Positions 10,677-27,597 of a stretch of 49,125 bases of DNA are shown one piece after another. Both the position numbers and the translations under genes were made by a program. Location: assembly GCA_019057795.1 (NCBI GenBank), contig JAHLWS010000041.1, positions 1 to 49,125 of the forward strand, in the 5' to 3' direction. Position 1 is the stretch's first letter. Each line of letters starts with the position of its first letter. The stretch is from Promethearchaeota archaeon. Lineage in GTDB: Archaea; Asgardarchaeota; Lokiarchaeia; Sigyniarchaeales; SOKP01. Below the pieces are notes generated by a model. It made no database searches. It saw only the letters and a program-made list of their open reading frames with translations, and was not told the origin of the DNA.

Positions 10677-10839
10677 ATTTAATGCAAATCAAATAATTAT
10701 TTTTTTTTTACTTTTTAATTTAAAAATTATAAGTTGATTTCTTCAAAAGAACCTTGTTCTAGTTTATTATGTAATTTAAACGAAAAATTAATATTTCTTA
10801 ACCAACACACTAATAAAAGGAATATTTGGTAAGGTTATC

Positions 10840-12087
10840 ATGAAGTATAGAAAAATGGGTTTTCTGGGTTGGGAAGTGTCTGTTTTAGGTTTTGGGACTA
10901 TGAGGTTGCCAATAATACAGGTAAAGGATGAAAATACTCAGAAAATGAAGTCTATTATAGACGAGAAAGAAGCAATAAAAATGATTCGTTATGCAATTGA
11001 TAACGAAGTAAATTACATTGACACTGCTTATCCCTACCACGATGGTGAAAGCGAAGTGCTTGTAGGAAAAGCGTTAAAAGACGGATATCGCGAAAAAGTT
11101 CACCTCACTACGAAATTACCAATGTGGATGGTTAAAAAAACAGAGGATTTTGACTTATTTCTCAAACAACAGATTGAAAGATTACAAATTAATCCCGATA
11201 TCTACTTATTCCACGGACTAAACAAGCAACGGTTAGAAAAGATTAAAATTCTTAATTTAATCGAAAAAATGGAGCAAGCAAAAGCTAAAGGTTTATTTAA
11301 ATACATAGGATTCTCGTTTCACGATAATATTGAAGTCTTTAAAGAGATAATTGATTTTTATCACTGGGATTGTTGTCAGATACAGTTTAATTATCTTGAT
11401 ATCAATTACCAAGCTGGTACTGAAGGGTTAAAATATGCTGGTAGCAAAAATATCGCAGTAATCATTATGGAGCCAATCCGAGGCGGACAATTAGCTATTC
11501 CCGAGGAAAAATTAGATTCAAAGCCAGAAATTAAGATGGCTCTTGATAATTCAAAAATTAAGAGGACCATGCCAGATTGGGCACTACAGTTTGTATGGAA
11601 CCACCCCGAAGTTTCAGTTGTATTAAGCGGGATGAGTACTATGCAGCACGTTGAGGAGAATCTGGAATCTGCAAACAGTTCAGGTGTCAATACTCTATCT
11701 GAAGACGAGTTGCTGACAATTTCAAAATTGCGCGAAGCATATAGTAAATACATATTGATACCTTGCACGAGCTGTAGATATTGCATGCCATGTCCTAATA
11801 GTGTTTCAATCCCTTTTATCCTTAGAATAATAAATGATCTCGCATATTGGGGGGAAAGTGGTAAACCTAGAATTGACTTTTTTTATAATAGGATGGCAAA
11901 AACACAAGCGGATATTGAAAAAAGAAAATCTGAAGGCGAGGAATTTGACGGAGCTGCTTCTTTATGTATTCAATGCGGGGAATGTCTTGGTAAATGCCCA
12001 CAACAGATAAAGATTCCTGAAATTATGGAAAAAGCCAACGAAATTTTTGAAAAAGGTAAAAAAATCTCAGATGTTTTAAAACTATAG
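10840..12087 (+). CDS. Aldo/keto reductase with C-terminal 4Fe-4S dicluster domain
   Basis: LGFGTMRLP, YIDTAYPYH, IGFSFH, MEPIRGG; CTSCRYCMPCP and CIQCGECLGKCPQ. Confidence 0.93.
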   Translation: MKYRKMGFLGWEVSVLGFGTMRLPIIQVKDENTQKMKSIIDEKEAIKMIRYAIDNEVNYIDTAYPYHDGESEVLVGKALKDGYREKVHLTTKLPMWMVKKTEDFDLFLKQQIERLQINPDIYLFHGLNKQRLEKIKILNLIEKMEQAKAKGLFKYIGFSFHDNIEVFKEIIDFYHWDCCQIQFNYLDINYQAGTEGLKYAGSKNIAVIIMEPIRGGQLAIPEEKLDSKPEIKMALDNSKIKRTMPDWALQFVWNHPEVSVVLSGMSTMQHVEENLESANSSGVNTLSEDELLTISKLREAYSKYILIPCTSCRYCMPCPNSVSIPFILRIINDLAYWGESGKPRIDFFYNRMAKTQADIEKRKSEGEEFDGAASLCIQCGECLGKCPQQIKIPEIMEKANEIFEKGKKISDVLKL

Positions 12088-12207
12088 ATCAATATTTTGA
12101 ACATTAACAAAAAGATATAATAAAATAATGAGTTTTATTTTTAATATAAAATTAGGAATTTAGTTTTAAATAATAAAAAAAAAAAGACATAGGAAGTGAT
12201 CGATAAG

Positions 12208-12366
12208 ATGGATGTTAAATGGAAAGATTTTAAAAAATCTTTTCCAACTATTTGTACCAAGTGTGGTTCGCTATCTAATATGACCAGAGAATATTGTGAA
12301 GTTTGTGGTGCTAAAAATTGCTTCATAGAGACAACAAAAGGAGATTGGGAAAAAAATAAAATGTAA
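12208..12366 (+). CDS. Small Zn-ribbon protein (52 aa), missed by ORF track
   Basis: MDVKWKDFKKSFPTICTKCGSLSNMTREYCEVCGAKNCFIETTKGDWEKNKM*; two CxxCG knuckles; AGGAAGTGA upstream. Confidence 0.75.
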   Translation: MDVKWKDFKKSFPTICTKCGSLSNMTREYCEVCGAKNCFIETTKGDWEKNKM

Positions 12367-12533
12367 GAGTAAGTTGTGGGAAATTAAATTGGTTGAATTA
12401 ACATTTATTTAAATCAATATTAAAAAAAAGCTTAATAATAAAAGTCATAAAATTTCTATTAATTTATTTCAACACTATACCTTAATATTAGCAGCATTAG
12501 TAGCAAATTAAAAGTTTAAAGCTTAAATGCAAT

Positions 12534-13851: not shown

Positions 13852-15345
13852 ATGGGTATGACTAAAGATATATTGTATAATAAGCTAGCAAAAATTTGCG
13901 GTTCTAAAAATGTTTCTAATGATACGAAAGAATTAGAAAAATACTCTGAGGATATGAGTTTTGTTAGTGGCAAACGCCCCAATCTTATAGTTTGGCCTTC
14001 AAAAGCTCATCATGTAGAAGCGATTTTGAAATTAGCGAATAGTTTTAACTTTTCAGTTATTCCTGTAAGTTCTAGTTCTATATACAGACATCATGGAGAT
14101 ACTATCCCTAAAAAAAATAACAGCATAATACTAAACCTCTCTAAAATGAGTAGAATCCTTTCTATAAGTAGAAAAAATCGCGTAGTAATGGTTGAACCCG
14201 GAGTTACTTTCGAGGTCCTAATACCAAAACTTAAAAAAAAAGGCGTTAGGTTGCTTATCCCTTTACATCCCACATCTAATAAATCAGTGCTATCATCAGC
14301 GCTCGAAAGAGAACCAATAACAATACCACGATATCATTGGGACAGTTCTGATCCTCTGTTATGTACAGAAGTGATTTTCGGAACTGGAGATTTGTTTCGA
14401 ACTGGCACAGCTGCGGGGCCTGGAACGTTAAAGCAACAGAAAAGGTCAGGACAAAACCAAATTAACCCCATGGGACCAACCCAATTTAGTCCATTTAGAG
14501 TAATTCAAGGAGCCCAAGGGAGTATAGGTGTTGTAACTTGGGCTACAGTAAAACTCGAATTACTACCTTCTATTCAAAAGGTTTTCCATCTTCAATCTCA
14601 GAACCTTCAAGAGCTATTAGATTTTCAATTCGAATTGTTAAAAAATCGATTGTGTGACGAGTTGTTAATTTTAAATAACCTTAATTTAGCCTGTCTAATT
14701 AAAAGCACTGAACAAGACATATATGAACTCTCAAACTCGTTAAAGAAATGGAATTTAATATTTATAATAACTGGAAGAGGTATGCTAGCGAATGAAAAAA
14801 TCTCTTACCTTGAAGGAGATATTAACGAGATAAAAAATAAACTAGATCTTAGTAATTTAACGAGTGAAAATAATGTTGAAGATCAGGAAATTATTAGAGT
14901 CTTAAGTGAACCCGCTTTAAAGCCTTGGAAAATGAAGTTAAAAGGTAGTTATCAAGAAATTTTCTTTTTAACTAGTTTTGAGAGAATTTCAGAGTTTATT
15001 TCTTTAGTTGAAACTAAGATTTCTAAAAATTTAGGAATTTATATTCAACCTATAAATCAAGGTACTTCTTATCACTGTGAGTTTGATCTTTTTTATGACC
15101 CTCAAGATGGTATGGGAGTAAAACGTCTTAAAGAATTATTTATAGATACCAGTAAAGATTTAATAAGCTTAGGTGCTTTTTTCAATCGGCCATATGGTGA
15201 TTGGGCTGAAGATGTGTATAAAAGTCTCGACGACTCAATTATAATGGCTCTAAAAAAAGTAAAAAAGATTTTTGACCCAAATAATGTTCTAAATCCAGGA
15301 GTATTATGTTTTGATGATGATGAAAAAAACAATAGGAGTATATAA
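13852..15345 (+). CDS. FAD-binding oxidoreductase (VAO/PCMH - GlcD superfamily)
   Basis: FAD_binding_4-type N-terminus (LNLSKMSRIL..VEPGVT), GAQGSIGVVT, C-terminal KKIFDPNNVLNPG. Confidence 0.9.
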   Translation: MGMTKDILYNKLAKICGSKNVSNDTKELEKYSEDMSFVSGKRPNLIVWPSKAHHVEAILKLANSFNFSVIPVSSSSIYRHHGDTIPKKNNSIILNLSKMSRILSISRKNRVVMVEPGVTFEVLIPKLKKKGVRLLIPLHPTSNKSVLSSALEREPITIPRYHWDSSDPLLCTEVIFGTGDLFRTGTAAGPGTLKQQKRSGQNQINPMGPTQFSPFRVIQGAQGSIGVVTWATVKLELLPSIQKVFHLQSQNLQELLDFQFELLKNRLCDELLILNNLNLACLIKSTEQDIYELSNSLKKWNLIFIITGRGMLANEKISYLEGDINEIKNKLDLSNLTSENNVEDQEIIRVLSEPALKPWKMKLKGSYQEIFFLTSFERISEFISLVETKISKNLGIYIQPINQGTSYHCEFDLFYDPQDGMGVKRLKELFIDTSKDLISLGAFFNRPYGDWAEDVYKSLDDSIIMALKKVKKIFDPNNVLNPGVLCFDDDEKNNRSI

Positions 15346-15370
15346 ATAAAATCTTAATATATTTCTAATC

Positions 15371-18325
15371 TTATTTCAATTTTTCTTTTAGATGCCTATA
15401 CACTTTCTTTAAAGAGCCTAATTTTTTTAATTCATCTGCCCAGATTACTCTAAACCTATGTCTAAGCGTAGAGAGGTTGTAATCCTCATTATGTGCAATA
15501 TCTGAAATAGAATCATATTTTTTCATATAAGAAAATAATTTGGGTTTCCAAACATATTCCCTCACCGCTTCTGTATAATCAATTCCTAAAATATTTCTTA
15601 AGAATTGCCTTGCTTGAACTATTCCCATTTGTAATTTTTCGGCAATTTCTTGCATAGTGGATGTATTTCTAAGGAGAGTTTTTAAAAACGCATTGTCGAT
15701 ATCTCTTGCTGATGTAGATTTGATTAATAATTGATTAAGATAGTCATTATCTATTTTGTTATAACCAAATATACATCTTCTTAGAAATTTATGATATTCT
15801 GAATCTGTATAACCATATGCTCCCAATTTTCTTTTATATTCCTCATCCATTTCAGTGGAACTTTTGTTTTGAGTTATTAAGTTAATTAATAATTCATTGT
15901 CTATAAATGGATAAAAGAGATAAAACCTCTTCAGAAATTTATATAACTTCTCATTATTATGATTAAATTCATCATACTCTTTTCTCCAAATTCGACCTAA
16001 TTCCCGAAAATATGTAGTGACATGCATGTCCCTCAAAATATCAGATATTTTATAATCAGCCATAATAGCATTGATTATATGCGGTTTCCAATAAAATAAA
16101 TCTTTCGCAGACTGAAAATACATATGGGGTGTAAAATTAATATTCAGAATTTCTGTCATAAATTCACGCATCCATTTTACGCCTCTCTCATAAATTAAGG
16201 CAAGTTGTGCCATATTAAACCCTGCATAAATTAATGATTGTAAATGCAATATATCAATGTCAATCATAGCACATTCATTAATGTTCGATATTGTATTTTC
16301 TTCAAGTATTTTATTTATTTTCGGGTAGATTTTAAAAAGTCGTTGAGCTTCATAGAAATTTACTCCCCAATATTCATTTAAACGAGATAGTATTGTAGGT
16401 CTTGTCACGCCAAAATAACCTGCTATTTCTTCAATTGACCTACCCAATTTTATGAGTTTTATGATTTCCCCTTTATCAATTTGAATATAATCTTGATGAT
16501 CGCTCCCCCGTAATGTAGCAGATGCTTTTTTTCGAATCCATTTTTTTCTAAAGGTTTCCATTGCGCCTAATCTTATCCTCGCATCTGTAAGATTATTAAA
16601 ACCTATTTTTTGTAAATGTTTTGTAATTGTTGAAAATGAAGTCTCTAACTCTTCTTCTAGCTCACTTAAAAATAATCCATGTTCAATAAGATCTATGAGT
16701 TTGGGGATATCTAACTCAACACCTACAACTGACTTAGCGGCAGTTCCGAACCTATCGAGAAAAGCTTGGTTTCCTCCAAAATTTGCCCTTGCTTCTCGTA
16801 GGTTTTCTAATCCCAAGTGTTTCCAATAATATTCTACTTTACTAATCAATGTTGGGATTGAAATTTCAAATTCTCTAGCAATTTCCTCAGCAGAAAAACC
16901 TCTCTTTAATAAATTTTTAAGAGAATCTTGGTCTACATGAATGAAACTACCATGTTCCTCTCCAGTTATTGTAGGATAGCCGCCACCACCTCTAGAGATG
17001 TTATACCCATACAACGGTCTTCTTTTACCATCTTTTCCAATAAAATAATGGTCCAAAACACATGTTCTATACTTTTTAATGAAAGATATTTCAGACTTGT
17101 TCAAATCATCTAGGTCTTTACACTTCTTAATAACTTTTATAGTAAATTCCCCGCCTGTAGTCTGGAGAGTTGCATTGCCAATTTTGATAAAGGAAAGTTT
17201 TTTACCATACCTTCCGAAATTTTCTCTGAGATATTTATTGCCTGAGTAATTTATATGACTGTAGAACCTTTTCTTTAATTTTTGAATAGTTTGCCCGATG
17301 TAGAGCATTTTATATTTTAAAAAATTATCTTTATTATTATCTATCAAAATATAAATCACGCCATAATAAGCTCTCCAATTTTGTAATATAACTGATGTAT
17401 TTCTATTAGTCTCTTTGATAAATTTAACTTTTGAGCTACTATGGTTTATATCCTGTAAGAATTCCTCTTTTCTACTTCTTATTTTTAAATCATTGTCTTC
17501 TGGAACAAATTCATGGCATAAACCATTTTCTAAAAATATACGATAAGCTGCGAAAAGCTCATACGCAGAAATCTTTATTGGAACTTCTGAGGGAGATCTT
17601 CCCATTATTATCATATAAGTTCTTGCTTGTAGGATTTTATCGTATTCCGCTTTTTTCAGACTAATTGAATCTGAGTCAATAATTTGTTGGTTTTTTAAAT
17701 ACTTTTTATTTATAATTTTTAAGCACTCGTTTAACCGATCTTGAATTAACTTTTTAACTAATCGGGGAAAAGGTTTTATTTCTTCTTTATTACAAAGTCT
17801 TTCATTCATATCATATAGCTTCTTTAAGAATTCAATATACTCCATTTCAATTTTCTTAAATCCTAGTGTGATAAGTTTATCCCTCTTTTTTAAGAAGGAA
17901 TTGTCATCAATAGATTTTTTCTGTTTTTTATTTAATGAATTCTTATAGGCTTTTGATAAGGAATCCAAATAACCCGGCACTATCTTAGCCCCCCTCCCTA
18001 GGGAAGAACAATACATCCATTTATGAAAAACAGATAAAACATTCTTAGGGCTCTCTTCTTTAACCAATTCCATTAATTCTTTAGGAGGTGCTATTGAATT
18101 ATCAAACAAGCATGCGTTTACTGATTGAAGGAAATCTCCGATAAATTCATCTACAAAAACCAATGGAATTTTGTGTTCTCTGCATTTGGGATATTTGGAC
18201 ATTCCAAAAATTCCAAGTTTCAATGGTTTTAACCTTTCAAGCGTATTGCATCCAAATTTAGGACATACCGCAACTCGATCTCCTTTTAATCTTTTCCGAG
18301 TAGCTTGATTCTTCGTATCGATCAT
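15371..18325 (-). CDS. Large GIY-YIG endonuclease with Cys/His N-terminal domain and tandem HTH repeats
   Basis: GVIY..YIGQT..KRFYSH..SEISFI..GYN (about 16980-17370), followed by several HTH-like units (e.g. GFSAEEIAREFEISIPTL, GRSIEEIAGYFGVTRPTI); N-terminal CPKFGC..CREH. Confidence 0.8.
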   Translation of the reverse strand: MIDTKNQATRKRLKGDRVAVCPKFGCNTLERLKPLKLGIFGMSKYPKCREHKIPLVFVDEFIGDFLQSVNACLFDNSIAPPKELMELVKEESPKNVLSVFHKWMYCSSLGRGAKIVPGYLDSLSKAYKNSLNKKQKKSIDDNSFLKKRDKLITLGFKKIEMEYIEFLKKLYDMNERLCNKEEIKPFPRLVKKLIQDRLNECLKIINKKYLKNQQIIDSDSISLKKAEYDKILQARTYMIIMGRSPSEVPIKISAYELFAAYRIFLENGLCHEFVPEDNDLKIRSRKEEFLQDINHSSSKVKFIKETNRNTSVILQNWRAYYGVIYILIDNNKDNFLKYKMLYIGQTIQKLKKRFYSHINYSGNKYLRENFGRYGKKLSFIKIGNATLQTTGGEFTIKVIKKCKDLDDLNKSEISFIKKYRTCVLDHYFIGKDGKRRPLYGYNISRGGGGYPTITGEEHGSFIHVDQDSLKNLLKRGFSAEEIAREFEISIPTLISKVEYYWKHLGLENLREARANFGGNQAFLDRFGTAAKSVVGVELDIPKLIDLIEHGLFLSELEEELETSFSTITKHLQKIGFNNLTDARIRLGAMETFRKKWIRKKASATLRGSDHQDYIQIDKGEIIKLIKLGRSIEEIAGYFGVTRPTILSRLNEYWGVNFYEAQRLFKIYPKINKILEENTISNINECAMIDIDILHLQSLIYAGFNMAQLALIYERGVKWMREFMTEILNINFTPHMYFQSAKDLFYWKPHIINAIMADYKISDILRDMHVTTYFRELGRIWRKEYDEFNHNNEKLYKFLKRFYLFYPFIDNELLINLITQNKSSTEMDEEYKRKLGAYGYTDSEYHKFLRRCIFGYNKIDNDYLNQLLIKSTSARDIDNAFLKTLLRNTSTMQEIAEKLQMGIVQARQFLRNILGIDYTEAVREYVWKPKLFSYMKKYDSISDIAHNEDYNLSTLRHRFRVIWADELKKLGSLKKVYRHLKEKLK

Positions 18326-18948
18326 TCTCGAATCATCACTTTCTTTTTTTTATTTTTACTTTTATTCTGCTCATTTTTTTTTGTTAAAAGTAATTGGTCA
18401 TACTCCCGCTCCAGTTGTTGATAATTGAACTTAAGTTGCTGAAAAAAATCTGGTATAATTACATTTATCTTGTTTTCAACAATACAAAATTTTGTTAGCA
18501 TTTGTATTACCTGCTTTAATAATTGAGGTCTCATGTGAATTTCTAATCCTGAGAGAATATGAAATAATTCCCATAATCTTATTTTACTTTTTAAAAATCT
18601 ATTAAAGGCTCTTGCTTCTGGACTATTTGGAAAAGAAAGTGTTTTTTTTGCTAAAATTAAGACTTTCATCTTAATATTTTCCTTCGGTCCAATATATTTT
18701 TCCAAAAAACCAGTATATTCCAAGTAAAGCATGATTAGTTCTTTTTCCAATTTTTGAACTATGTGACTCTTTGAGATAACAGGATGATTCTCAAAATCCC
18801 TACATATTGCAAGTATAGTTGATTCCCTGTAATTTAGATAAGTTTTCAACTGACGAGAAAGTAAAGTTATTTTATTCTCAGTTTGATCAAGATTCTCATC
18901 ATAATAATTAAGATCATCATCATCATCATTATATATTAGCGAATTCAT
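18322..18948 (-). CDS. Hypothetical helical protein, translationally coupled to the GIY-YIG gene
   Basis: 208 aa; ATGA start/stop overlap at 18322-18325; acidic N-terminus and basic C-terminus. Confidence 0.75.
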   Translation of the reverse strand: MNSLIYNDDDDDLNYYDENLDQTENKITLLSRQLKTYLNYRESTILAICRDFENHPVISKSHIVQKLEKELIMLYLEYTGFLEKYIGPKENIKMKVLILAKKTLSFPNSPEARAFNRFLKSKIRLWELFHILSGLEIHMRPQLLKQVIQMLTKFCIVENKINVIIPDFFQQLKFNYQQLEREYDQLLLTKKNEQNKSKNKKKKVMIRE

Positions 18949-19264
18949 TTTATTGTCAATATTTTTTATTTTTATTTTTAGATTACAACTGCTAATCTAT
19001 TAAAATAGACATTTATATTTAAACAAAAAATGATTTGAAATTTGATGATTTATTATTATTGATCGTTAATGTTCAGTCTCTTTTCATTTAGGCGGATGTT
19101 TTAAGTTATTTTTTAACCAAATTAAATCAAAATCTGATTTTTACAAAAAAAATTGAAGTTGTATAATAAAAATGTTTTTGAAGTATGGTATGAAGATTTA
19201 GTATAGAAATTAAGAATAAATTAAGGTGATTTAAATCCCACTTAGTGAAGATGAGTATAATAAC

Positions 19265-20576
19265 ATGATTAAGCGGTGTCTACGGTGCTCGATAGATAAA
19301 AAGAATGTCTCTCTTATCCGTGAAATGCAAATGGATACCGCAACTCCAAATTAAAAGTCAGAAATACGCAACAGCCTGTCCTGCAATAGATATGTATAAT
19401 TTTCATCCTTATAGTGGAGGAGGCAAGATCATTTTGGCGCTAGCTTTAGAAACAGGCAGAATTAAATTCTCAGAAGAACTTCGAGATATAGTTTATAAAT
19501 GTACTGCATGCGGTTCTTGTGATGTATCATGTAAATTTTTAAACACTCTGGAACCGCTAGAAATAATAATGAAGCTTAGAGAGAAATTGGTGGATGCCGG
19601 ATATGGACCTATGCCAGAACAACAACAATATATTAAATCTGTTAAAATTAATAATAATCCATACAATGAATCTCATAGAAATAGATTAGATTGGTTGCCT
19701 AATGACCTTAAAATTGATTCGGAAGCAAAAATTTTGTATTATGTTGGATGTACTTCCTCTTATCGAAGAAGAGAAATGGCAGTTGCCGCCGCGCGCATAT
19801 TGAATGCTGCTAGCGTTCCATTTAACATACTAATTGATAAAGAGTTCTGTTGCGGGAGCCCAGTATTAAGGACTGGCGATACTAAAACATTCGAGGAATT
19901 ACTCAATAAAAACATCGATGTTATAGAATCTAAAGGAATTGAAACCGTTGTTTTTTCCTGTGCGGGATGTTATGACACATTCAAAGTAGATTATCCATTA
20001 TATAAGGCGTATAAATTTCGAGTGCTTCATACCGTAGAATTTTTTAATGAATTAATTGATAATGGTCAAATAAAATTAACACATGAAGTGCCATTAACCG
20101 TCACCTATCACGATCCTTGCCATTTAGGAAGAAATGCAGAACGATATGAAGAATGGGGGGGTGATGTTGTCGATTTAATGCCTTTAGTATCTATTAATGT
20201 CCCCCCTAAACCAAAAAGAACTGGATCAAAAGGGGTTTATGAACCACCTAGAAATATTTTAAAGAAAATCCCAGGATTAAAATTTGTTGAAATGGAAAGA
20301 ATACGAGAATATTCTTATTGCTGTGGAGCTGGGGCAGGAGTAAAATCAGCGTTTCCAGAATTTGCTCTTAAAACGGCAAGAACAAGAATTATAGAAGCTG
20401 AAGATTCTGGAGCAGACACTTTAACTTCTGCTTGTCCATTTTGTTCTACTAATTTGCAAGATGGAATTGAAGAATCTGGTTCAAGTTTAAAATTTTATGA
20501 TATTAATGAATTATTAATAATGGCTTTAGGATTAAAACCGAATGGATTAAAAGATAGAAAACTGGAGGTTGCTTAA
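19265..20576 (+). CDS. (Fe-S)-binding CCG-domain oxidoreductase (GlcF/HdrD-like), interrupted by a 31-nt insert
   Basis: Exon 1 MIKRCLRCS(I) plus exon 2 CKWIP..ACP gives CxxCxxC-x16-CP; second motif CTACGSCDVSC; CCG domains (YYVGC, EFCCG, YHDPCHLGR, CCGAGAG, ACPFC). Joined length 426 aa from ATG 19265; possible ATC start at 19235. Confidence 0.88.
19294..19324 (+). other. Candidate bulge-helix-bulge (BHB) intron in a protein-coding gene
   Basis: Bulges AUA (19292-94) and AAA (19323-25); central helix CUCG/CGUG (3 of 4 paired); inner stem GAUAA/UUAUC. Cutting after the 2nd nt of each bulge removes exactly 31 nt and restores the frame (TCG ATA TGC). Confidence 0.65.
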
Positions 20577-26242: not shown

Positions 26243-26286
26243 CTTATATTTTCTTTTAGTTTCAGATTCAAAATCTTTAATTAAGA

Positions 26287-26302
26287 ACTAGTAATTACTA
26301 GT
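26287..26302. promoter_or_regulatory. Perfect 16-bp palindrome, candidate operator of the MFS gene
   Basis: ACTAGTAATTACTAGT immediately after a TTTAATTAA TATA-like box. Confidence 0.4.
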
Positions 26303-26400
26303 AATACTAATTTTAAAAAATTATTTTTATCTTCATCTTAAGGTGAATAAATCTGGCTACAAATGACCAAACAACTAGTAAATCTATAAAAAAACGAAGA

Positions 26401-27597
26401 ATGATATTTGGAGTTTCAATTCCAGTATTTTTGATGGGATTAGTATCATTGTTTACAGATATTTCTAGCGAAAGTATTCAAAGCATATTACCTTTATTTA
26501 TTTTTGAAATTGGAGGAAGTGTGCTAATTTTAGGGCTAATTTCAGGAATTACAAATGCTATTGCGAACATTTTAAAGGGAATCACCGGCTGGATGAGTGA
26601 TAAAATAAACAAAAGAAAACCTTTTATTGTAGCTGGCTATTCCTTATCGAACCTTTCAAAACCATTAATAGGGTTGAGCCCTTCATGGGAAATGGTCTTA
26701 GGGTTAAAAGCAACAGATCGGGTAGGTAAAGGGTTGAGAACATCTTCGAGAGACACTCTTATTTCTTTTTACGCTACTAAAAAAGGAAAGGCATTTGGAT
26801 TGCATCGTGCTATGGATACATTAGGAGCGGTTCTTGGCTCATTACTTGCATTTCTATTATTGCTTTACGCGTGGAGCTTTTCACAAATAATATTTTTCTC
26901 AATAATTCCTGGATTAATTGCAATTGCCCTAATTCTTCCAGTTAAAGATGTTTCTCCAGAGGAGTTAGATAAAAAACTTGGAAAAAAAATTAGAAAAGAA
27001 AAGAGTGAAAAGATTGATAAAAATTTTATAAAATTAATCGTTATTCTTGGAGTTATTGAATTTGCCAGTTTAGATGTCGTATTTTTAATTATTAGAGCAA
27101 TAGATTATATTCCTTCCAATTTAATTTACCTTATACCCGTTTTTTATCTTATTTTGAACGTAGTTTATACAATTTTTTCTCCAATAAATGGCTCCTTGTC
27201 CGATAAAATTGGCCGAAAACCGATCATCGTGATCGGATTATCGATATTACTACTATCTTGCGTGATTTTAGCTTTTCCTATTGAAGTCTCTCTTTTTTCA
27301 ATAGTTTTAATTATTGTAATTTACATCATGCACGGTTTTTACCTAGCCTCTGTGGATCCAATCTCAAGAGCATTTATAGCTGACCTAGCAGGTGAAGAAA
27401 AAAGAGGACGAGCCTATGGATATTATTATTTGTCAGTCGGATTTATAAGTATGGTGGAAGCTTTAGTTTTTGGATATATATATAGCGTGTTTTCGTATAC
27501 TTGGGCGTTTATTTATATATCAATTTTATTAGTTGTATGTATTATTATTTTTACGATTACTGACTTTTCTAAAATCATAAAAAAAAGTGAAGCCTAA
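26401..27597 (+). CDS. MFS transporter
   Basis: TDISSE, GWMSDKINKRKP, DRVGKGLRT, GKAFGLHRAMDTLGA, LSDKIGRKP; possible in-frame CTG start at 26353. Confidence 0.93.
   Translation: MIFGVSIPVFLMGLVSLFTDISSESIQSILPLFIFEIGGSVLILGLISGITNAIANILKGITGWMSDKINKRKPFIVAGYSLSNLSKPLIGLSPSWEMVLGLKATDRVGKGLRTSSRDTLISFYATKKGKAFGLHRAMDTLGAVLGSLLAFLLLLYAWSFSQIIFFSIIPGLIAIALILPVKDVSPEELDKKLGKKIRKEKSEKIDKNFIKLIVILGVIEFASLDVVFLIIRAIDYIPSNLIYLIPVFYLILNVVYTIFSPINGSLSDKIGRKPIIVIGLSILLLSCVILAFPIEVSLFSIVLIIVIYIMHGFYLASVDPISRAFIADLAGEEKRGRAYGYYYLSVGFISMVEALVFGYIYSVFSYTWAFIYISILLVVCIIIFTITDFSKIIKKSEA

Follow-up and report, generated by a model that had tools for sequence, protein, structure and literature searches.

A mobile nuclease cassette with a putative bulge-helix-bulge mini-intron as its right end in the chromosome of a Promethearchaeota archaeon

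How does a short intron of the tRNA type come to lie within the first cysteine motif of a protein-coding gene, and does a predicted nuclease gene located nearby have any part in its presence there? The question is raised by a stretch of 49,125 nucleotides from a Promethearchaeota archaeon (assembly GCA_019057795.1, contig JAHLWS010000041.1, positions 1 to 49,125, hereafter called the window), in which a two-gene cassette encoding a putative GIY-YIG nuclease separates the gene for a GlcD-like FAD oxidase (glcD) from the gene for a CCG/HdrD-like iron-sulfur (Fe-S) protein, here called the CCG gene, which is itself interrupted by 31 nt close to its start (Table 1). The answer that we favor is a selfish element of the homing type, about 4 kb in length, that has inserted between the two host genes and of which the intron, probably of the bulge-helix-bulge (BHB) type, forms the right end. 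The window represents contig C41 of the genome G000, which has a size of 4.95 Mb and a GC content of roughly 31%; the other genomes compared with it are labeled G, and the other loci or contigs L.

The insert was delimited by an alignment of the 5' ends of 24 orthologs of the CCG gene, collected from 42 genomes of the genus. The beginning of the protein is uninterrupted in 22 of these orthologs (MIKRC[LV]RCS[IV]CKWIPQ..), and an insertion of exactly 31 nt is present at one and the same point in the other two, the window and the genome G006. It is placed between the codons for ..CLRCSI and CKWIPQ.., within the first cysteine motif (CxxCxxC), and was also identified in the public cassette contigs L085/L086, L087 and L089, as well as in L098, the sole new contig to emerge from a scan of metagenomes for the pattern. 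The insert is 31 nt long in all five distinct alleles. Joining of the exons at the predicted splice junction, TGCTCGAT to ATGCAAATGG, restores the reading frame and gives an open reading frame (ORF) of 426 aa, MIKRCLRCSICKWIPQ...ACP, with the complete CxxCxxC..CP motif, whereas the unspliced reading from the ATG of exon 1 (19265) ends after 29 aa. Neither a second copy of the intron nor an uninterrupted copy of the junction sequence was found in G000. For exon 2 the dN/dS ratio is 0.15 relative to the genome G032 and 0.095 relative to G006, and by this measure the host gene is functional and under purifying selection.

The insert fits a relaxed BHB shape, which was drawn by hand, with sliding of the pairing partners as a control. 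The central helix (19288-91/19319-22) reads CUCG/CGUG in the window and is a perfect CUCG/CGAG in three alleles. The two bulges are of 3 nt each, AUA (19292-94) and AAA (19323-25), the inner helix (19295-99/19314-18) is GAUAA/UUAUC, and on the outer side a weak helix of 3 bp is followed by an exon-exon helix of 10 bp (19273-82/19332-41). Canonical BHB substrates, which have the geometry of pre-tRNAs, are cut after the second base of the bulge, and such cuts would here remove exactly 19294-19324, the same nucleotides as the alignment-defined insert. Across the five alleles, 94% of the cells pair in the proposed structure, compared with 26-53% when the partners are slid, and there are two compensatory pairs, one of them produced by synonymous Arg and Pro changes in G006. 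The insert is thus more than a product of chance, given its length of exactly 31 nt in five alleles and the excess of pairing over the control. The minimum free energy (MFE) folds of three alleles arrive unaided at the central helix, the AUA bulge and the inner helix, that is the 5' half of the structure; the MFE fold of the window allele alone contained no BHB. A mirror-image BHB geometry was rejected because its helices failed to pair, and translational bypass because matching take-off and landing codons are absent. Genes for the splicing machinery were identified in G000, two for EndA (PF01974 hits) and one for RtcB (PF01139 hit), and we infer that the intron is removed from the mRNA of the CCG gene by splicing. 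The two PF01974 genes, of about 200 aa each (C69:74212-74436 and C74:72339-72587), may form a two-subunit enzyme of broad specificity.

That the insert is part of something larger is indicated by the comparison with G032, which is syntenic with the window on both sides and about 95% identical to it, but has a mere 107 nt in place of window positions 15316-19325. Homology to G032 stops at the last codons of glcD and resumes at the first bases 3' of the intron, and exon 2 is 93-95% identical to G032 from its first bases. In the intron-less alleles glcD directly abuts the CCG gene, and the spacer that precedes exon 1 in the window is not present. A hand count on the alignment gave an identity to G032 of only about 78% for the exon 1 region, here the 54 nt that precede the insert, whereas the stretch of exon 1 and intron is 91-95% identical to G006, L085 and L087. 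Because it is so much closer to other copies of the element than to the sister genome, exon 1 is assigned to the element and not to the host. The spacer is 82-93% identical across the element-type alleles, with the part 19132-19264 common to G006, and it presumably carries a new promoter for the CCG gene. At the CCG site, the body of the host gene is fused to a replacement end that is diverged and of foreign origin; no remnant of the displaced native gene end was found in 15316-15370.

The left junction is seen at the same nucleotide, after TGTTTTGA[CT]GA, in the pair G044 and G001, whose glcD genes are 97.6% identical; G044 has the cassette next to glcD, and G001 has no cassette and an intron-less CCG gene. 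Between the window and L085/L098 the identity is about 68% in glcD, 85-96% (about 90%) in the block and about 73% in exon 2, rising at about 15350-15400 and dropping after about 19366. Relative to G044, it is 66% in glcD and 81-85% in the cassette. In the host-gene trees, carriers are scattered among non-carriers, with G000 as the sister of G032 at 100/100 and with G006 and L089 near the base. The contrast in identity between block and flanks, together with the scattered carriers, rules out simple vertical descent. By these comparisons several lineages have acquired the block, together with its intron, at the same site, and we have little doubt that the block with the intron is a mobile unit. 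In the L085-type copies (L085 at about 170-340, L086 and L098), the spacer is enlarged by an insertion of about 170 nt, which is present neither in the window nor in L087.

For the co-occurrence of cassette and intron, we counted the lineages in which a cassette at the CCG site is assembled on the CCG side, namely G000, L085/L086/L098, L087 and L089; the cassette contig of G044 ends short of the CCG side and therefore lies outside the count. The intron is present in all of these lineages (4/4), and none of the intron-less orthologs has an adjacent cassette (0/22). The combination of the intron with a native exon 1 is seen in none of the 24 orthologs. The intron is always accompanied by the element-type promoter and exon 1, for which reason it looks like the terminal part of a composite element rather than an independent ORF-less intron. 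The sequence-only reading of this DNA had envisaged a free-standing nuclease module beside a candidate BHB intron that interrupts the cysteine motif of the neighboring gene, with both spreading together, and had suggested a check of their co-occurrence across metagenome-assembled genomes (MAGs). The interruption proved to be real, as an exact insertion relative to 22 of 24 orthologs, and the joint spread is borne out by the counts above, by the presence or absence of the unit in near-identical genomes and by an identity of about 90% in the block against 66-73% in the flanks. The intron and the nuclease cassette do not look like independent elements.

The nuclease candidate itself is a protein of 984 aa in three parts, a Cys/His-rich N-terminal domain of about 290 aa (the N-domain), a GIY-YIG domain and a long array of helix-turn-helix (HTH) motifs. 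The GIY-YIG domain is internal (aa 322-450) and was not called by Pfam at E<0.01 when the whole protein was searched. When residues 300-460 were searched alone, PF01541 matched with an E-value of 4.3e-6 and 27.4 bits, and the residues G322-Y325, Y342-G344, R353, H357, E412 and N442 are invariant across six orthologs, down to 46% identity. A score above the curated cut-off of 22.6 and the conserved Tyr, Tyr, Arg, His, Glu and Asn place the domain in the GIY-YIG superfamily. The nuclease module had been put at about 350 bp from the intron, which holds for the first codon of the cassette (18948), at 345 nt from the insert; for the GIY-YIG domain itself the distance is about 1.9 kb. No relative of the nuclease domain was retrieved when its sequence was searched against the PDB. 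For the N-domain and the 208-aa partner protein, which were modeled with AF2 (pLDDT 86 and 80, respectively), no convincing fold match was obtained (Foldseek against the PDB, E of 0.05 or higher), and a VIA wide search, for which only the N-domain model was used, gave helical bundles only, with Z of at most 7.4. PADLOC and PHROGs had no match for either protein. An Atlas feature search yielded nothing. In a locus of 47% identity (L088:2-3095, NCBI JAHPZG010000204.1), the GIY-YIG/HTH part is a separate gene of 663 aa, preceded on the same strand by a gene of 288 aa that we take to be the N-domain, in which case the locus would present a split form of the large protein. In L089:1300-4198, the large nuclease gene is broken into overlapping ORFs of 573 and 396 aa, due either to a frameshift, and hence decay, or to a sequencing error.

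Rather than a simple free-standing homing enzyme, as first supposed, the 984-aa protein is a member of a family of two-gene cassettes that is restricted to the Promethearchaeota and has interchangeable GIY-YIG, HNH and LAGLIDADG domains. There are six such cassettes in G000, in which the N-domain and the partner are constant and the C-terminal part is a GIY-YIG domain here, HNH_3 in one, LAGLIDADG_3 in one and without any Pfam domain in three. Small ORFs homologous to the partner precede all five of the other G000 cassettes and all 27 of the public loci checked. The N-domain has 95 cluster representatives among 1.84 billion proteins and is almost confined to MAGs of the Promethearchaeota. In 55 members of the family, Pfam identified LAGLIDADG_3 (8), HNH_3 (5), DUF4379 (4), GIY-YIG (2) and Intein_splicing (2), along with many HTH domains; DUF4379 is a treble-clef zinc finger, and one member has an RNase_T exonuclease domain. 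Four of the six G000 cassettes are located within about 70 kb of a single contig (C78:120000-194000, L052-L055).

Comparable arrangements are found in other copies of the family. The cassette at acr3 (L053) has a BHB-like insert at the point where the gene body meets a surrogate 3' end carried by the cassette, and the native end, of 63 nt, is displaced. Positions 27417-27575 of the window, at the 3' end of an MFS-like gene (26401-27597), correspond to the empty site of yet another cassette of the family; at this site G032 has about 5.3 kb, consisting of a cassette of 718 aa plus 203 aa and a gene of 709 aa. The HNH copy has a duplicated target of about 80 nt on its flanks. A target-site duplication of the transposase type was rejected, since the repeats at the junctions are long and diverged gene ends (63-159 nt).

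What the comparisons establish is a unit with precise ends that has moved between lineages into the same site, an intron of conserved length and structure, a host gene under purifying selection and a nuclease with conserved motifs. We propose that these are the traits of a homing-type composite element, and for the full mechanism our confidence is modest, although on balance we favor it. The GIY-YIG/HTH protein would cut cassette-less alleles at or near the conserved coding sequence for ..CSI/CKW.., and the break would be repaired from a carrier copy by means of the homology provided by exon 2 on the right side and the 3' end of glcD on the left. The whole block would thereby be copied in and the intervening 107 nt discarded. 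In the element-bearing allele the target would be split by the intron, making it immune, and the host tRNA-splicing endonuclease and the RtcB ligase would excise the intron from the mRNA, such that the Fe-S protein could still be made. The sole indirect hint at a cut in this place is the edge of the block, which falls on the insertion point of the intron, and the lack of an uninterrupted junction sequence in G000 would be in keeping with immunity. A broader hypothesis, to which we give somewhat less than an even chance, is that nuclease cassettes of the Promethearchaeota carry BHB mini-introns as their terminal module, and that in this way the introns enter protein genes and spread among them at the DNA level; there they would break the nuclease target and let the element sit inside an essential coding motif.

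A number of observations weigh against the homing hypothesis. The co-occurrence in 4/4 lineages of two features located 345 nt apart is linkage and not four independent tests, because the element-bearing lineages share the ancestry of the element. The genome G006 has the intron without the cassette, with a spacer and an exon 1 of the element type. Its contig runs into an unrelated locus to the left of the position corresponding to about 19132, and no GIY-YIG relative was found in this 87%-complete MAG. The state of G006 fits with decay or loss of the nuclease after fixation; alternatively, the contig may be chimeric. In the CCG tree, L089 falls close to G006 at the base; it possesses the cassette, the large ORF of which is split in two. 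As for the RNA structure, the window allele has a U.U mismatch in its central helix, and the part of the outer helix beside the 3' bulge, with G.U, U.G and one variable pair, is weak. Elsewhere in the family, the MFS copy of G032 is without an intron, its diverged surrogate end of 159 nt being fused to the gene and the native end displaced downstream, and the LAGLIDADG copy is purely intergenic, also with no intron. Because these other cassettes manage without it, the intron is an option for the mobility of the family rather than a requirement. Finally, the nuclease might have its target at another place, such as the glcD stop or the intergenic region, and the N-domain and the partner, for which no matching fold or family was found, could provide another mechanism of mobility.

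These last two points each lead to a different explanation. If the cassette cuts elsewhere, at the glcD stop, in the intergenic region or in exon 1, the intron could be a non-protective passenger of independent origin that is merely copied along, in line with the insertion of other family members without any intron. We consider this unlikely, since two kinds of comparison put the right edge of the exchanged block at the 3' end of the intron, the intron is joined to a native exon 1 in 0/24 orthologs, and acr3 has the same layout with an intron at the junction.

If instead the N-domain and the partner are recombinase- or integrase-like, the block could be mobile in the absence of nuclease-driven homing, with the GIY-YIG domain serving in addiction, defence or processing. 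Such a division of roles is suggested by the constancy of the N-domain and partner in every cassette, alongside a variable type of nuclease. Yet searches of Pfam, PHROGs and PADLOC brought up no signature of a recombinase or transposase. The repeats at the junctions are not short, identical target duplications but gene ends that are long (63-159 nt) and diverged, and the swapping among three families of homing endonucleases argues for selected, site-specific cutting. We regard this explanation as quite improbable.

We also considered the possibility that the insert is not spliced at all, which would mean that the gene is either broken or read from a start further inside, giving a protein that lacks the first two cysteines. 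An ATG at 19305, within the insert, does open a frame of 423 aa in the window, but G006 has a TAA in the downstream frame just before CKW, and an internal start was rejected for this reason. The conservation of exon 1 and of the 31-nt length in five alleles, with compensatory pairs, also speaks against an unspliced insert, as do dN/dS values of 0.09-0.15 and the loss of two ligands that the first Fe-S cluster would suffer, all of which makes this account very improbable. Least probable of all is an ancestral block inherited vertically at the locus and repeatedly lost with precision, a reading that was rejected on account of the jump in identity. All carriers do have the block at the same locus, and linkage over 345 nt alone predicts the co-occurrence. 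Yet flanking host genes of 66-73% identity enclose a block of about 90%, G032 is no deletion derivative, given an exon 1 region only about 78% identical to that of G000, the trees would require at least 6-8 precise losses, and the conserved glcD-CCG synteny argues against paralogy of the flanks.

Table 1. Position of the element and of the adjoining host genes in the window.
Feature	Position	Strand	Remarks
GlcD-like FAD oxidase gene (glcD)	13852..15345	+	Left host flank; Pfam FAD_binding_4 and FAD-oxidase_C
Last ~10 codons of glcD (..DDEKNNRSI*)	15316-15345	+	Element-derived; homology to G032 (95.8%) stops at 15315
Mobile block: cassette, promoter-like spacer, replacement exon 1 and intron, ~4.0 kb	15316..19324 (~19325)	.	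Absent from syntenic G032
Gene for 984-aa protein	15371..18325	-	N-domain ~290 aa (17456-18325), GIY-YIG (~16976-17362), HTH array (15374-16963)
Gene for 208-aa partner, all-helical	18322..18948	-	Overlaps the start of the 984-aa gene by 4 nt
Element-borne spacer, presumed new promoter of the CCG gene	18949..19264	+	Missing in intron-less alleles
Exon 1 (MIKRCLRCSI, split Ile codon AU/A), element-type replacement copy	19265..19293	+	Delimited by alignment; stands in for the first 29 coding bases of the host gene
Putative BHB-type mini-intron, 31 nt	19294..19324	+	Exact insertion relative to 22 orthologs
Exon 2, host body of the CCG/HdrD-like Fe-S protein gene	19325..20576	+	Pfam CCG and Fer4_8

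Two further differences between the window and G032 were observed outside the element. The segments 10715-12086 and 12075-12488 (window 10715-12488) are in swapped order in G032, a local rearrangement between genomes that are 95% identical, and at window 26247-26357 G032 is longer by about 580 nt (G032rc 15801-16491).

The homing-type composite element favored here resembles the collaborative homing known from phages, for example nrdA/mobE of Aeh1 (reportedly Bonocora and Shub 2009; review in PMC3984707, also PMC2790892). Both have a nuclease gene outside an ORF-less intron, a conserved coding sequence as the site and joint inheritance of the two parts, and the logic of an intron-less allele that is cut and an intron-bearing allele that is immune would also be shared, although here it is a proposal only. 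Whereas the phage systems consist of a self-splicing group I intron in a phage host, the intron in this Asgard archaeon is a 31-nt BHB intron that would be spliced by proteins. The nuclease is moreover one domain inside a larger protein (984 aa), encoded in a cassette of two genes, and the intron is accompanied by a replacement exon 1 and a presumed promoter and is never seen independently.

Another parallel is offered by the mORFs of fungal mitochondria, which carry a foreign gene end, as in atp6 of Allomyces macrogynus and in atp6, atp9, cox2 and nad3 of Glomus; in Glomus cox2, a group I intron is located directly before the inserted end (PMC3630166). There, too, a LAGLIDADG or GIY-YIG gene moves with a diverged replacement end that is fused to the body of the host gene. 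The mORFs replace the C-terminal end, whereas the element in the window brings a 5' end with a promoter, on an archaeal chromosome, and the junction is bridged by a BHB intron. A further difference is that the displaced native end is not retained at the CCG gene, although it is at acr3 and in the MFS case of G032.

As for the intron, a precedent in a protein-coding gene is the BHB intron of the cbf5 pre-mRNA in Crenarchaeota, for which Watanabe 2002 is reportedly the source. Our literature search on BHB introns in protein-coding genes brought up only cases of the cbf5 type, and it retrieved no publication in which BHB introns of Asgard mRNAs are associated with nuclease cassettes. The cbf5 intron has a lineage-specific distribution, with gain and loss (Yokobori 2009, PMC2738675). 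Like the intron in the CCG gene, it is a short intron of the tRNA type in an archaeal protein gene, where EndA presumably makes the cuts before the ends are rejoined. The abstract of that paper (PMC2738675) mentions neither a nuclease gene that belongs to the intron nor a way in which it moves, whereas the intron in our study ends a mobile cassette and appears to spread horizontally.

Our findings imply that seemingly frameshifted genes in such MAGs can be intact, and they define a family of two-gene cassettes, restricted to the Promethearchaeota, in which the N-domain and the partner are the constant parts. A mobile block that ends at a tRNA-type intron suggests one way in which such introns enter protein genes, and the locus offers a concrete and testable route for the gain of BHB introns in protein-coding genes, by joint movement of cassette, replacement gene end and mini-intron into a single precise site in several Loki-type species. 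What is known as collaborative homing in phages, and from the mORFs in mitochondria, with introns that splice themselves, would thereby be extended to the chromosome of an Asgard archaeon and to introns spliced by the host. If the hypothesis is true, introns that are spliced by proteins have a means of homing in the archaea most closely related to the eukaryotes.

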